DNA of 63,804 nt, filler included, from Candidatus Rokuibacteriota bacterium (lineage in GTDB: Bacteria; JAUVQV01; DATDCY01): NCBI GenBank assembly GCA_031406795.1. It is 5 parts of 5 records of this genome, joined end to end, with 100 filler letters (N's around TTAATTAATTAA, not from the genome) between each part and the next. Parts side by side here need not be neighbours in the genome. Positions count along the whole stretch, not along the records: positions 32,457 to 53,606 come from JANOHV010000121.1; 4 more parts are not named here. One strand, given 5' to 3'. The position numbers and the translations under genes are program-made. Below are positions 34,488 through 39,431 of this stretch, one piece after another. The notes beneath the pieces are model-generated. The model saw nothing but the letters and a program-made list of their open reading frames with translations, made no database searches and was not told the DNA's origin. Position 1 is the stretch's first letter. Each line of letters begins with the position of its first letter.

Positions 34488-35092
34488 GAGCAGTGCTGGC
34501 TGCACTTCTATTGACGGTCCTGCTGCCGGGGTGCGGCGGCCTGCTGCGGGAGTCGAAGCCCACGGTCTGGCTCGCGCTCGAGCCGGCCTTGCCGGCCGGG
34601 GGAGCCCGCGCCGGGGCGCCTTCGCTGGAGGTCGACACCTTCGCGACGGCCGCGGCCTTTCGCGGCGACCAGGTCTCGGCCCGGGTCGGGCCCTCCCGGT
34701 GGTCATTCACGTCGTACCACCACTGGGTCGCCGATCCGGGGGAGATGGTCGCTTCCTCGACCCGGGACTATCTGAGCCGTACCGGGCTCTTCGGCGCGGT
34801 ATTCACGCCGCCGGGGCCGCTGGAGGCCGATTACCGCCTGAGCGGTGCGGTCCGGGGGCTATACTGGGACCGCGAAAAGGGGACGGCGGTTCTCGAACTG
34901 GAGGCCACCCTGATCGCGCGTCCCGCCACGCTGCGGGGATTCTGGGTCTACCGCAAGGAGACACCCGTGGCGGGCGACGAAGTGCAGGGCTTCCTGCATT
35001 CGGCGTCGGCCGCCCTGGGCCTCGCGCTCGTGGATCTCAGCCGGGACCTCGCCGCGGCGGTCGGCGGCGCCCCGCCGCCGGGAAGCCGTTAG
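34484..35092 (+). CDS. ABC transport auxiliary lipoprotein (PqiC-like)
   Basis: LPGC lipobox, YHHWVADP.EM and DYRLSG; ATG overlaps the MCE stop. Confidence 0.82.
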   Translation: MRAVLAALLLTVLLPGCGGLLRESKPTVWLALEPALPAGGARAGAPSLEVDTFATAAAFRGDQVSARVGPSRWSFTSYHHWVADPGEMVASSTRDYLSRTGLFGAVFTPPGPLEADYRLSGAVRGLYWDREKGTAVLELEATLIARPATLRGFWVYRKETPVAGDEVQGFLHSASAALGLALVDLSRDLAAAVGGAPPPGSR

Positions 35093-35111
35093 CAGCCTGC
35101 TTGGGCTGCTA
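35090..35111. terminator. Hairpin between convergent stop codons
   Basis: TAGCAGCC-TGCTTG-GGCTGCTA; no U tract. Confidence 0.4.
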
Positions 35112-35113
35112 GC

Positions 35114-36283
35114 TCAGAAGGCGATCTTCCTGACGACCCGGTGAATGAGCAGCTCGCTCGCCGGCGCGGGGTGGTAAGTGAGCCGGACCTGCACGTCGGC
35201 GCTCTTCGTTCCCGCGGGTAGTTCCTTGACGAACCGCTCCCGCGTGGCCGTGCGCGGCGGGAGGGAGAAGTCCAGAATCTCCTTGATCTGCCAGGCGCCG
35301 AGCCGCTGGCGGCCCTCCGCGTCCAATCCCATCTCCCAGTACTCCCGCCGCCCCAGGTTGACCACGGTTCCCGTATCAGTCGTGGCGGTCGCTTCCAGGA
35401 CCGCCTTCGCCGTCCAGAGTCAGCCGTCGGGGATGCGGTGCCCCGCCCGGTTGGTCAGCTCCACTTCCACGACGGCCGTGGGCACCCAGGTCCCGGGCGT
35501 CGTTTTCACCGCCGCGGCCTGCACCTCGAAACCGATGCCCTCCCGGACCATCTCGACATCGTAGGCGCCGGGGAAGGTGTGGCCACGTTTTTCTTTGCGC
35601 ATGTGGCAGTCCTGGCAGGTCTCGGTGCCGCCGTTGCCGCGATAGCCGTCCTGGTAGCTGCCGTAAAGGGTGTTGCACATCACGATTTCGCCGTCCGGCT
35701 GAGTCTGAACGCCATGGCACTGACCGCAGAAGACCGACGATGCGAGCGCCGCCGAGCGCTCCGTGGGGTGGTCGGACGTCAGCACGCCGCGCGGACCGTA
35801 GTAGACGCCCGGGGCGGGAGCGCCGCGCAGGTTCTTCTCGACCGCGACCATCGTGTGGTGGCAGATCACGCAGTTGACGCTCAACTTCGCCAGTTCGTCC
35901 TTCGCCGCGGACTTCTTGGCCGTATCCTTCTCGTCCACGGCCGCGACGATGAGCTCGGCGACCTGCCTGATCAGCGGCTCAGAGGCTTCCCGCAGCATCG
36001 GCGCGTGGCAGCCCATGCACCGCATCAGGTTCTCCCGGGTGACCGGCTTCTTCCACTCCTGTCCGAGGCCGAAGACGATGAAGTTGCGCAGCCCCCCCAG
36101 CGAGTGGACGATCGATTGGGCGTGGAAGGACTTCTGCCACTCGTCGTGGACGCTCTCGTGGCACCCCCGGCAGGTCTGCGGGTTGAAGGCCCTCGCCAGA
36201 TCGTCGATGGTGGCGTACTCCGCGCGGGCGGCGCCCGGCAGGATCGCCGTAAGCAGCGCGATCAGCAGAAGCGGCGTTTTCAT
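35114..36283 (-). CDS. ExtKL-type multiheme cytochrome c selenoprotein (UGA at 35420-35422 read as Sec)
   Basis: Signal peptide and five CxxCH motifs (CRGCH, CMGCH, CVICH, CGQCH, CQDCH). GHRIPDG-TGA-LWTAKAVLE continues in frame to 35114, and a SECIS-like hairpin follows the TGA. Confidence 0.88.
35384..35405 (-). promoter_or_regulatory. Bacterial SECIS element
   Basis: 14 nt after UGA: GGCGGUC-CU-GGA-AG-C-GACCGCC, a stem with a bulge and a G-first apical loop. Confidence 0.75.
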
Positions 36284-36348
36284 CGGCGGCCCCCTTTTCT
36301 ATTGGAACCTGACGCTGCCCCCGAGTCTCCCGCCGCGGGACATGAAAG

Positions 36349-38322
36349 TCAAGGTTCGTGCGTCTGCGGCGCCGCTTCGGCGAACCGTGCCGCGATCGCC
36401 TTGAATTGAAGCTGGTTCGCCAGAAAGGCGTCGAGCACATCCGGGTCGAAATGCGTGCCGCGGCCTTTCGCCAGGATGCCGGCGGCCTGCTCGTGCGTCA
36501 TCGCTTCCTTGTACGAGCGGCGGCTCACGAGCGCGTCGTAGACATCGGCGACGGCCATCAGGCGTCCGGCGATCGGGATCTGCTCGCCGCTGAGTCCCTG
36601 GGGATACCCGGTGCCGTCCCACTTCTCCTGGTGCGTCAGCGCGAACTCGCGGGCGATCCGGAGGAAGGAGTCGTCGCCGAGGTGCCGCTCGGCCATCTCC
36701 AGTGTGGCGTCGCCGTAGCTCGTGTGGTGCTTCATCTCCTCGAACTCCGCGCTGGTCAGCCGCGTCGGCTTGAGCAGAATGTTGTCGCGCACGCCGACCT
36801 TGCCGATGTCGTGCAGCGGGGCGAGCCTGAAGAGCAATTCTATGGACTGGTCATTGAGGAAATCGCGGAAGCGCGGGTGTTCGCGCAGCCGTTCGGCGAG
36901 GACCTTGACGTAGTGGCGGGTGCGCTGGATATGTCCGCCGGTCTCGCTGTCGCGCGTCTCCGCGAGCGCGGCCATGCTCTGGATGATGACGTCCTGCGTG
37001 AGCGAGAGCTTGCGGGAGAACCTGGCCGCCACGCGCTCGCCCTGACGGAAGCGCAGGTAAGAGAGCAGGGCGAAGCTCCCGGCGAGGACGAACTGGGGGA
37101 TAAGCGGGGAGACGAAAAGCCCTTCCCGCGTGAAGAGCAGAAACGAACCTCCCCAGAGGAGCCCCGAGCCGACGACCAGCAGCGGCAGTCCGGCGATCGC
37201 GCCGGCGCGCGAGAGCACGAGGGTCGCCAGTGTGCCTGCGAAAAGCGCCGCCAGCAGTTCCCAACCGTGCGCGGAGCGTGGGCGTTGCAGGAAATCGCCC
37301 TGGATCAAGGTGTCCAGCGCCGCCGCGTGCACCTCCGGCCCGGGGAAGACCGGGTCGAAGGGGGTGGCTCGCAGCTCCTTCAGCCCGGCGGCGGTGGTGC
37401 CGACGATGGCGATGCGCCCCGCGAGGGCCTTCGCCGGAATGCGTCCCTCGAGCACGGCGGCCGCGGAGAAGTAGTCGTACCCATGCCCGGCGCCTCGAAA
37501 GCGAACGAGCATGTTTCCGTTGCCGTCGATGGGGATTCTTCGCCCGGCGACCTGGAGGTGTCGGGGCGCTGCGGCGGCCAACGCCACGGCCACGTCGCCC
37601 CCGCCGCGGGCGCGCAGGAGCGCCGCGAGCACCAGACTCGGGTAGGTCTCCCCGCGGTGTTCGATCAGCAGCGGGATGCTGCGCAGGGTGCCATCCGGGT
37701 CGGGGGCAACATTGAAGAAACCCGAGGCGCCGGCCGCACGCGAGAGCTGCGGCAGGTTGCAGACGACCTGCGGCGCCTGGACGAGGCGCACCTCGTCGGT
37801 GCGCCTCTCCCGGTCGATCGCGAGCGGGTGCAGCAGGCAAGCGCCCGGGTCGCCGTTGCCGGTGGCCGGGCCGAAGCCGAAGGCGTACCCGAGTACGAAG
37901 GGGCCGGCCGCGAGGGCTTCGGCGAGGCGCCGGTCATTGTCGACCGCCCGGCCGGACGGATCGCCGACGCTGACGACCACCCCGAGGTCGCGCTCGATTT
38001 CGCGGGTGACCAGCGACAGGGAGGTGCGGTCGGGTTCGGCGAAGACGATGTCCAGCGCGACGGCCGCCGCGCCGAGATCGCGCACCCGATCGAGCAGCTG
38101 CGCCACCCGATAGCGTGGCCAGGGCCACTGGCCGAAGCGGGCGAGGCTCTCCTCGTCGATGTCCACGACCACCGGGACCGCGCCGGCCGGTCGGTGCGTC
38201 GCGCCGCGCAAGAAGCTGTCGTAGACGCGCCCTTCGACGCCCCGGTAGGCGCGGGGGGAGGACCAGCACGCGATGGCGACCAGCAGGGTGAACCCAAGCC
38301 CCGCGGCGACGATCTGTCTCAC
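36349..38322 (-). CDS. CHASE2-sensor HD-GYP phosphodiesterase
   Basis: VDIDEESL..FGQWPWPR, DIVFAEPD and PGPEVHA (CHASE2), 3 TM segments, then LHDIGKVG and HQEKWDGTGYP. Confidence 0.93.
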   Translation of the reverse strand: MRQIVAAGLGFTLLVAIACWSSPRAYRGVEGRVYDSFLRGATHRPAGAVPVVVDIDEESLARFGQWPWPRYRVAQLLDRVRDLGAAAVALDIVFAEPDRTSLSLVTREIERDLGVVVSVGDPSGRAVDNDRRLAEALAAGPFVLGYAFGFGPATGNGDPGACLLHPLAIDRERRTDEVRLVQAPQVVCNLPQLSRAAGASGFFNVAPDPDGTLRSIPLLIEHRGETYPSLVLAALLRARGGGDVAVALAAAAPRHLQVAGRRIPIDGNGNMLVRFRGAGHGYDYFSAAAVLEGRIPAKALAGRIAIVGTTAAGLKELRATPFDPVFPGPEVHAAALDTLIQGDFLQRPRSAHGWELLAALFAGTLATLVLSRAGAIAGLPLLVVGSGLLWGGSFLLFTREGLFVSPLIPQFVLAGSFALLSYLRFRQGERVAARFSRKLSLTQDVIIQSMAALAETRDSETGGHIQRTRHYVKVLAERLREHPRFRDFLNDQSIELLFRLAPLHDIGKVGVRDNILLKPTRLTSAEFEEMKHHTSYGDATLEMAERHLGDDSFLRIAREFALTHQEKWDGTGYPQGLSGEQIPIAGRLMAVADVYDALVSRRSYKEAMTHEQAAGILAKGRGTHFDPDVLDAFLANQLQFKAIAARFAEAAPQTHEP

Positions 38323-38325
38323 TCG

Positions 38326-38970
38326 CTATCTCACGGTGACTTCGACGCGGCGATTCCTCGGTTCGGAAACATTGTCTCCCGTCGGCACGAGAGGGTTGAC
38401 TTCGCCGTGGGAGGTGATGTCGAGCGCGCCGGGATCGAGCCCCTCCGCGACGAGCAGAGCGCCGACTGCCATCGCCCGGCGCAGAGAGAGCGCCATGTTC
38501 GTCCGCGCGTCTCCGGCGGTGTCGGAGTGGCCGACGACGCTCGTATCGACGGAGGCGTACTCGCGAACGGTGGCGATTATCGCGGGGAATTCGGCCCGGG
38601 AAACCCCGGTCAATTCCGTTGAACCCTGTTCGAAATAAAGGAGGAAGTGGCGCGGCGGCGTCGGCTGCGCCGCAAGGGCGGCTCCGAATGTCGCCTCGAG
38701 TTCGGCGGCACCCATCGTTGCCGGCGCGGTCGGTGCGCTCCCCGCGTCACGGATGCGCGTGGCGTCTCCCGCCCGGTCGAGGGTGCGGCTGCCCGCCCGG
38801 TTCGACACGATTACGCGGCCGACCTTGCCGTCGGCGTCGGGCAGCAGCACGACCGCGTTCAGCGGTTGGGCGGGCGGCGGCGGGGCGACCGCCGCCGGAT
38901 GTGGCGTCGCGCAGGCCGCCAACGGCAGCGCGAAGGCGAGGGCAAGCCGTAGATGGATGCGCATGGTCAC
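38326..38970 (-). CDS. OmpA-C-like peptidoglycan-binding lipoprotein
   Basis: LAAC lipobox; GHSD..G...N..LS.RRA..V and NRRVEV. Confidence 0.92.
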   Translation of the reverse strand: MTMRIHLRLALAFALPLAACATPHPAAVAPPPPAQPLNAVVLLPDADGKVGRVIVSNRAGSRTLDRAGDATRIRDAGSAPTAPATMGAAELEATFGAALAAQPTPPRHFLLYFEQGSTELTGVSRAEFPAIIATVREYASVDTSVVGHSDTAGDARTNMALSLRRAMAVGALLVAEGLDPGALDITSHGEVNPLVPTGDNVSEPRNRRVEVTVR

Positions 38971-39431
38971 TCCGAGACCCTGGCGGCGAAGTGCGTGCCC
39001 CGCACGCCGATGGTCGCCACCGGGGTCACGAAAATCGACGACTCCGGCGCGAGGCGGCCGATGAGCCCCGAGACGTAAGCCATGGTGCCGCGCAGGAACC
39101 GGGCCGTGAAACCCAGCTTGCCGTCGGCGGGCACGAAGAGGAATTTTTCGATCCCGAAATGGCTCGAGGGGCCGAGCGAGATGAGGGAGTCATCGCGAAG
39201 GACAATACCCAGCCGTCCGTCAGGCCCGGTTTCCAGGATGTCGCCTGAGTTCAACTTGAAACCAGGCAGGGCGGGTGTCTGTCGCCCGTCGCGAACAACG
39301 ACAGCCTGTCCGAAAACCTTCTTGATACTGCCGACGGTCTTTTCGTCGGCGACGGCCGGGCGCGCGATCAGCAGCAGCGTTTGAAGCAGCGCGATTCCGG
39401 CGAGCACTGCCACGCTCCGGAGGCGACTCAT
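38967..39431 (-). CDS. Secreted FecR-domain protein
   Basis: Signal peptide, GDILETG.DG and DDSLISLGPSS, ending TPVATIGVRGTHF. Confidence 0.88.
   Translation of the reverse strand: MSRLRSVAVLAGIALLQTLLLIARPAVADEKTVGSIKKVFGQAVVVRDGRQTPALPGFKLNSGDILETGPDGRLGIVLRDDSLISLGPSSHFGIEKFLFVPADGKLGFTARFLRGTMAYVSGLIGRLAPESSIFVTPVATIGVRGTHFAARVSE

Follow-up and report, generated by a model that had tools for sequence, protein, structure and literature searches.

A five-heme cytochrome gene of the ExtKL/MccSep family with an in-frame UGA in Candidatus Rokuibacteriota, and the altered pocket of its clade

In the genome of a Candidatus Rokuibacteriota bacterium (assembly GCA_031406795.1, record JANOHV010000121.1) a gene for a five-heme cytochrome is split by an in-frame TGA codon, which raises the question whether the locus encodes a truncated protein or a single selenoprotein, and what such an enzyme would do in a genome where it stands apart from the partners that accompany its relative in Geobacter. 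The gene lies on the minus strand of the window (the whole stretch of 63,804 nucleotides that was analysed, to which all positions refer). Translation with table 11 ends at codon 288, a TGA (35420-35422) that follows GHRIPDG, giving 287 residues, while the frame itself runs on for 101 more codons to a final TGA at 35114-35116. The TGA split, the 101-codon continuation, a hairpin 14 nt downstream, five CxxCH motifs and an additional Cys in IVMCNT, all described in the first-pass annotation, were confirmed, and the locus comprises the following features:

36290..36296, minus strand: purine-rich Shine-Dalgarno-like site, 6 nt 5' of the ATG, read from the sequence
36283-35114, minus strand: mccsep/extKL clade-3 gene, 389 aa including the predicted Sec288, with matches to NF040886 and PDB 9wt8
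36221..36283, minus strand: putative signal peptide, residues 1-21, ending in A-R-A, predicted from the sequence
36158..36172, minus strand: CxxCH 1, C38-H42 (sequence and alignment)
36104..36106, minus strand: His60, in a shortened loop at the place of Geobacter MccSep R83 (alignment)
36005..36019, minus strand: CxxCH 2, C89-H93; H93 corresponds to MccSep H122, which ligates the active-site heme proximally
35858..35872, minus strand: CxxCH 3, C138-H142 (sequence and alignment)
35714..35728, minus strand: CxxCH 4, C186-H190 (sequence and alignment)
35675..35677, minus strand: Cys203 (in IVMCNT), the sole Cys outside CxxCH, corresponding to MccSep C239, distal ligand of heme 2
35603..35617, minus strand: CxxCH 5, C223-H227 (sequence and alignment)
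35420..35422, minus strand: in-frame UGA, predicted Sec288, aligned with MccSep U325
35117..35419, minus strand: 101 post-Sec codons, completing an Ig-like beta-sandwich (AlphaFold2 model and fold search)
35384..35405, minus strand: SECIS hairpin with a 7-bp stem, starting 14 nt past the UGA (folding and conservation)
35282..35305, minus strand: clade-3 signature R327-x-G-A-W-Q-I-K334, in place of the Geobacter K372 segment (alignment)
35090..35111, no strand: perfect 8-bp inverted repeat between two convergent stop codons, without a T-run

A hydrophobic leader preceding the same mature start is common to the aligned homologues. The inverted repeat downstream of the gene (folding z -2.71, 2/200 shuffles) is a possible shared terminator of the two convergent genes, but a scan of positions 34800-36700 returned no terminators and no promoters, and did not call this repeat. 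Folding of the 68-nt gap upstream of the gene gave z 0.31, and an Rfam scan of the window yielded no matches at gathering scores. In one RNA run, contigs matching stretches of the gene at 91-97% were present, but the UGA was spanned by none of them; such contigs cannot show transcription.

A genome scan confirmed 241 relatives of the gene, the best 80 of which were kept as loci. Four of these were dropped before tree building: L034 for its premature TAG, L045 because it meets a contig end, L049 for stretches of N, and L105 for a Pro in the column of the internal stop. Among the remaining 76 public loci the column of the internal stop holds TGA in 67, Cys in 8 and Trp in 1, which bears out the first-pass expectation of Cys or Sec at this position in homologues. 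The hairpin taken alone is modestly above chance (-14.2 kcal/mol, z -2.21, 5/200 shuffles in a 33-nt window); longer windows give z -1.41 (41 nt), -0.64 (63 nt) and -1.13 (83 nt), and those of 63 and 83 nt favour another fold over the SECIS stem. It is conservation in the alignment, and not the folding energy of the window hairpin, that makes the case for a SECIS. An alignment of 68 UGA contexts, of which 59 are distinct and from which L009 and the duplicate L043 were omitted, has 93.5% of its cells paired, with four of six pairs changed on both sides, a result reached in 0/500 shuffles, while slid controls are 22-61% paired; the covariation is inflated by the kinship of the rows and by the use of their consensus to define the structure. 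Four-fold degenerate stem positions are nearly fixed (24 C in 66/70, 33 G in 68/70 and 36 C in 64/70 rows), whereas positions 6, 12 and 39, outside the stem, are variable. The window copy carries two T-to-C changes within the SECIS, at 35391 and 35403, both of which turn Val into Ala; one converts a U-G pair to C-G, and the other places a unique C at position 32 from the UGA, where T is found in 69/70 Sec-type rows.

The proposal that the organism has selenocysteine machinery is upheld by the genome, in which selA and selD score over their cut-offs, selD with an in-frame TGA of its own, tRNA-Sec reaches 69.2 bits (gathering 47), and in-frame TGA codons are present in two formate dehydrogenases as well. 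The match to selB is partial, spanning positions 158-580 where contig C88 begins, and falls below the whole-protein cut-off; a search of the genome did not turn up its N-terminal quarter. The selA gene is cut by the end of contig C93, so the two genes are possibly adjacent across an assembly gap. Taken with the alignment, SelB would almost certainly read the hairpin and direct insertion of selenocysteine at UGA288.

The contrary reading, in which the TGA is a real stop, separating two genes or marking a decaying one, or is read as Trp, appears highly improbable to us. Gene callers do stop there, and all 29 aligned database proteins (of 120 listed) end at the preceding PDG; moreover, the window hairpin has the deviant C at position 32, a TAG interrupts L034 prematurely, and the Sec column of L077 is occupied by Trp. 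However, eight homologues have Cys at this very column, the table-11 ORF after the UGA encodes only 83 aa and has no leader, the gene's own stop is TGA, the host selD and both formate dehydrogenases also contain an in-frame TGA, and mass spectrometry demonstrated Sec in the Geobacter orthologue (PMC13510729, in the sections available to us). As for the individual deviant loci, L077 (match 1407-2402) is related to clade 3 on a long branch; its Sec column reads TGG, its hairpin is weakened, and it is a Sec-less derivative that retains the heme-ligating Cys. In L034, a clade-3 gene, the TAG coincides with a conserved Trp that precedes the Sec codon, and L031 of the same clade has a second TGA about 27 codons past Sec; both genes look broken, being either pseudogenes or assembly errors.

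The read-through protein matches the NCBIfam model NF040886 (ExtKL) with 371.9 bits against a cut-off of 250, and the solved Geobacter MccSep (PDB 9wt8) with E 5e-53 over residues 22-356, the UGA falling on U325 and Cys203 on C239, so the likeness to Geobacter ExtKL noticed earlier has been substantiated. In the family alignment the five CxxCH motifs, four distal His residues, Cys203 and the Sec column are all conserved, with Cys203 kept in 79/79 rows (drawn from the best 80 of 241 relatives). An AlphaFold2 model built with an alignment of full-length homologues reached pLDDT 91.3 and pTM 0.87; it replaced a model built with the truncated database proteins, for which pLDDT was only 70.4. In a fold search its residues 227-369 match Ig-like domains, with the parts on both sides of the UGA belonging to one such domain, which a genuine stop would therefore cut. 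MccSep entries were absent from the results of both fold searches, an absence that says nothing about the fold; by structure, the model comes closest to Thermochromatium tepidum pentaheme cytochrome c552 (PDB 5ze8; Z 22.6, with an rmsd of 3.2 across 303 residues), which has only 22% identity and a weak sequence match confined to residues 12-96. Judged from its sequence, the window gene is one selenocysteine-containing five-heme cytochrome of the ExtKL/MccSep family.

MccSep of Geobacter sulfurreducens is ExtKL (GSU2937-2936; PDB 9wt8, 9wt9, 9wta-c), encoded in the ext cluster (described, in the part available, in PMC5877670) and listed, in the portion of a review accessible to us, as a known selenoprotein family. 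According to the available sections of the report by Mihara et al. (Sci Adv 2026; PMC13510729; preprint 10.1101/2025.11.18.688581), it is a periplasmic homotetrameric polysulfide reductase with weaker activity towards selenite, in which U325 and C239 are essential, the Sec sits beside the heme-ligating Cys, and the ligands of heme 2, H122 and C239, are called strictly conserved; the R83A and K372A substitutions lowered the activity and did not fully restore the sulfur-reduction phenotype. The window protein shares with it a putative signal peptide, the five CxxCH motifs, the predicted His/Cys ligation of heme 2 (H93/C203), Sec at the same column, a downstream hairpin and an Ig-like domain at the C terminus, and is 36% identical to the Geobacter-titled homologue L098. 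It differs in its length (389 residues versus 450), in the absence of R83, in having Ile at the K372 column, Leu in place of P326 and a Trp at position 290, and in the lack of a C-terminal insert and of an ext cluster.

Mihara et al. sorted 637 homologues into five clades (PMC13510729). In our tree, which was inferred by a quick method from rows drawn from the best 80 of 241 relatives, the window gene falls into a 43-row group (SH-aLRT 95) and has a U-L-W motif, of the U-x-W type characteristic of clade 3. The group includes records titled Nitrospirota, Thermodesulfovibrio, Desulfobia, Electrothrix, Thermodesulfatator and Thermosulfurimonas, and its members from T. dismutans and Electrothrix are labelled as Sec-type clade 3 in the available MccSep supplement, where TDIS_RS01570 of T. 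dismutans represents the clade and the Electrothrix entries are found in data S1/S2 (PMC13510729). Both the read-through and the family were already established, and the gene is a new member of a catalogued clade. The window gene has the same U-L-W motif and UGA context as this clade, and differs from the catalogued members in its host, from a phylum of six genomes, and in its long branch among Nitrospirota.

The pocket was compared between 40 clade-3 rows (L031, L043 and L077 left out) and 27 rows of the group that contains Geobacter. TGA is present at the Sec column in 42/42 clade-3 rows, and the heme ligands are all kept. Arg in the R83 loop was found in none of the 40 clade-3 rows versus 24/27 comparison rows, with His at this place in 17/40, and Lys at the K372 column likewise in none versus 27/27; in the window protein this column is taken by Ile333, while Lys334, present in 39/40 rows as is Ile333, stands one column off and is followed by a two-residue gap. 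Pro after Sec (P326) is found in 1/40 versus 27/27 rows. The C-terminal insert of 6-15 residues, presumably corresponding to the 'extended beta-hairpin' of the structure, occurs in 0/40 versus 24/27 rows, and its absence means that the oligomer of clade 3 may differ. On the other hand, F68, D197, N204, W290, D321, R327, W331 and Q332 are invariant in the 40 clade-3 rows, as is A330. From the alignment it is plausible that Arg327 and Lys334 compensate for R83 and K372, since Lys334 lies one column from K372, beside the gap, and Arg327 is a new arginine in the same segment. We found no assay of a clade-3 enzyme in print; nor did we find these differences between the two groups stated in the literature, although the MccSep supplementary figures, which lie outside the part available to us, may show them.

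The gene is convergent with an MlaF/MlaD/ABC-auxiliary operon and has upstream of it, at 36349-39431, FecR, OmpA-like lipoprotein and CHASE2/HD-GYP-type genes in one block; none of its neighbours is an ext gene. That it stands alone, as the first-pass annotation stated, is true; the implication that this is exceptional does not hold, because ExtJ and the 12-heme ExtM adjoin the gene in just 2 of the 80 related loci (best 80 of 241), L098 and L102, and solitary occurrence is ordinary, the rule outside Geobacter. ORF clustering across the 80 loci revealed no conserved partner family. In the 40 of 44 clade-3 loci covered by a Pfam search of 67 flanking ORFs, based on crude ORF calling, the neighbours are mostly housekeeping genes and include no rhodanese or multiheme families. 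Porin-like genes (DUF3034, OprD-family) were observed at one examined clade-3 locus only, L064 (6737-10494), on both sides of the gene and on the same strand; according to the available text of Digel et al. (PMC11976967), a porin is absent near the cable-bacterial homologues. A convergent MlaD gene occurs in three other clade-3 loci (L036, L037 and L046), which we take as chance. Genomes G001 and G003 conserve the FecR/OmpA/CHASE2 block together with an RNA-binding protein and a DEAD-box helicase; co-transcription of the cytochrome gene with this block is unsupported, as G001 has the block without the gene, and in G003 the Mla block is located elsewhere. The suggestion that the organism would use different partners agrees with tblastn searches of the genome, in which no match at E 0.01 was obtained with Geobacter ExtI, J, O, P and Q, and those with ExtH, M, N and S were weak (query labels other than ExtJ and ExtM were assigned by us from gene order).

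The host genome (G000; 99.91% complete, 3% contamination, 278 contigs) is the only one of six in its phylum with a clade-3 gene, three of the others, G001, G002 and G005, being just 77-88% complete. The gene is nested in an 18-row branch titled Nitrospirota (SH-aLRT 99) with 56-67% identity and a branch length of 0.41, and its GC3 of 0.90 matches that of its neighbours; an old transfer from Nitrospirota would be the simplest reading of these data. The window copy shows 18 departures from the consensus of its sub-branch, the second most among 16 rows. Gene decay was judged an unlikely cause, as most of these changes are conservative and they agree with a move to GC-rich codons.

A second Sec-type MccSep paralogue is encoded at G000:C271:2816-4057 (L004:1465-2706); it has the motif U-P-S-H-N-R, scores 465 bits against NF040886, is common to G001, and retains K372 and P326 while lacking R83. 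An FtrD-like gene follows it in G000, and in G001 its neighbourhood is different. A distant pentaheme cytochrome at G000:C234:16245-17723 (L005), with no internal stop and 62.4 bits against NF040886, far below the cut-off, has relatives in G002 and G003, and a tandem pair of distant pentaheme-type cytochromes (5 + 4 CxxCH), also with no internal stop, lies at G000:C143:4990-7347. In total, 55 unvetted frames with at least three CxxCH motifs were counted in the genome; two adjacent ones at G000:C156:1-16571 contain 70 and 26 of them (3887 and 1692 codons from stop to stop), the first running off the contig. Both dsrA and aprA score over the cut-off, aprA on contig C1 and the dsrAB cluster at G000:C13:27482-38681, where we take the upstream genes to be dsrMKJOP and the downstream ones dsrD and dsrL; the DsrD candidate has no NCBIfam match. 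Among the four PF00384 matches of the host there is no Psr/Phs-type subunit; they comprise the two Sec formate dehydrogenases, one NuoG-like protein and a fragment.

Clade 3 is the sole MccSep type that we found in Thermosulfurimonas dismutans (G063) and in two Electrothrix genomes (G061 and G062), whose proteins are 43-44% identical to that of the window. G061 contains L067 and has the title Ca. Electrothrix aarhusensis; in its genus a clade-3 gene is carried by 9 of 14 genomes, each with TGA and the same hairpin, and selA is present in 13 of 14, including all nine; the other five have only distant pentahemes without an internal stop. As in the window's genome, two MccSep types are found in the two closest Nitrospirota genomes; G064 and G065 have clade 3 beside a copy with U-P-T-P-N-R. 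In cable bacteria, the small pentaheme cytochrome sPHC has been proposed from its heme packing as a nanowire candidate (Digel et al., EMBO Rep 2025, PMC11976967), and the same electron-transfer reading is repeated in the accessible part of a 2026 paper. WLE99185.1, named in the available supplement of Digel et al. as one of two RB proteins called sPHC, with a two-gene structure, appears among the Sec-type clade 3 entries of the MccSep supplement (PMC13510729). Like the window protein, it belongs to clade 3 and is without a nearby porin, but sPHC is described as two-gene and possibly nanowire-forming. The word 'selenocysteine' has no occurrence in the main text of PMC11976967, 'cable bacteria' is absent from the main text of the MccSep paper (PMC13510729), and no paper in the collection searched names both 'Electrothrix' and 'selenoprotein'.

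The protein could be an electron carrier or a filament subunit, or serve to detoxify selenite, with little role in sulfur respiration. This we regard as improbable. The best structural match of the model, c552 (5ze8), is of unassigned function according to the available text of PMC11976967, the same source offers the heme-packing argument for nanowires, and Geobacter MccSep does reduce selenite, if more weakly (PMC13510729). However, TGA in all 42 clade-3 rows, aligned to a Sec that lies beside a heme-ligating Cys, is the mark of a catalytic site, and the nanowire proposal treated the RB sPHC as two genes.

On balance, we consider the window protein to be probably a periplasmic polysulfide reductase with a rebuilt pocket, by analogy with Geobacter MccSep; for clade 3 in general, reduction of polysulfide or selenite is plausible. 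The five-heme selenoenzyme would be exported, with four hemes predicted, from the alignment to the solved enzyme, to be bis-His ligated (distal His54, His172, His235 and His282) and heme 2 ligated by His93 and Cys203. Sec288 would attack the S-S bond of polysulfide, the adduct would be handed to Cys203, and electrons arriving along the heme chain would release sulfide, as proposed for Geobacter MccSep. The anion pocket would be rebuilt, with R83, K372 and P326 lost and Arg327 and Lys334 probably providing positive charge. Electrons may come from unlinked periplasmic cytochromes of the cytochrome-rich host with aprA and dsrAB rather than from an Ext complex, and the gene, probably acquired by transfer from Nitrospirota, may complement the second paralogue. 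Several observations count against this reading: R83 and K372, both needed by the Geobacter enzyme, have no aligned counterpart in clade 3; clade 3 is the sole type in the sulfide-oxidising G061 and G062, where net polysulfide reduction is unexpected; and the gene is confined to one of six genomes of the phylum, with the N-terminus of SelB unfound, a branch of 0.41 and 18 departures from the consensus.

The His/Cys-heme enzymes TsdA and SoxAX form S-S bonds for thiosulfate. The available text on MccSep likens its mechanism to the reverse of theirs (PMC13510729), and clade 3 might use the same Sec/Cys-heme chemistry on another sulfur substrate or in the oxidative direction, for example joining sulfide into polysulfide and so feeding sulfur disproportionation or sulfide oxidation, with the hydrophobic Leu289-Trp290 and Trp331 setting a new specificity. 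We think this unlikely, though deserving of weight: the altered pocket is shared without variation by the whole clade, no strong MccSep match other than clade 3 turned up in T. dismutans or in either Electrothrix genome, every Electrothrix-genus genome with the gene has selA, and its pairing with a second copy type in G064, G065 and G000 suggests divided labour. Against it, the gene is not universal in that genus, being missing from five of 14 genomes, and occurs in Thermodesulfovibrio-titled records; a disproportionating metabolism requires a reductive branch, for which ordinary reduction of polysulfide would do; and Arg327 and Lys334 could just be substitutes for R83 and K372. The stronger proposition that clade 3 as a whole is a distinct selenoenzyme making or exchanging periplasmic S-S bonds, and not simply reducing polysulfide, is one we would advance as doubtful conjecture.

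The polysulfide reductase reading carries over to the whole family what has been demonstrated for a single Geobacter enzyme, and clade 3 of this family is without two residues which that enzyme needs; it is the type carried by a sulfur disproportionator and many cable bacteria. Disproportionation is called the least understood metabolism of its kind in the available part of PMC13490349, which, like that of PMC10553843, says nothing on clade 3. With one sPHC protein placed in clade 3, the question arises whether this proposed nanowire component of cable bacteria is in fact a selenoprotein with a catalytic role. If clade 3 were indeed a distinct enzyme, the split candidate would be one selenoenzyme, the Rokuibacteriota host would use it alongside another paralogue in which R83 is likewise absent, and the clade would fill in a missing step in the periplasm, both for the disproportionation of elemental sulfur in Thermosulfurimonas and Thermodesulfatator and for sulfide oxidation in many Electrothrix cable bacteria.
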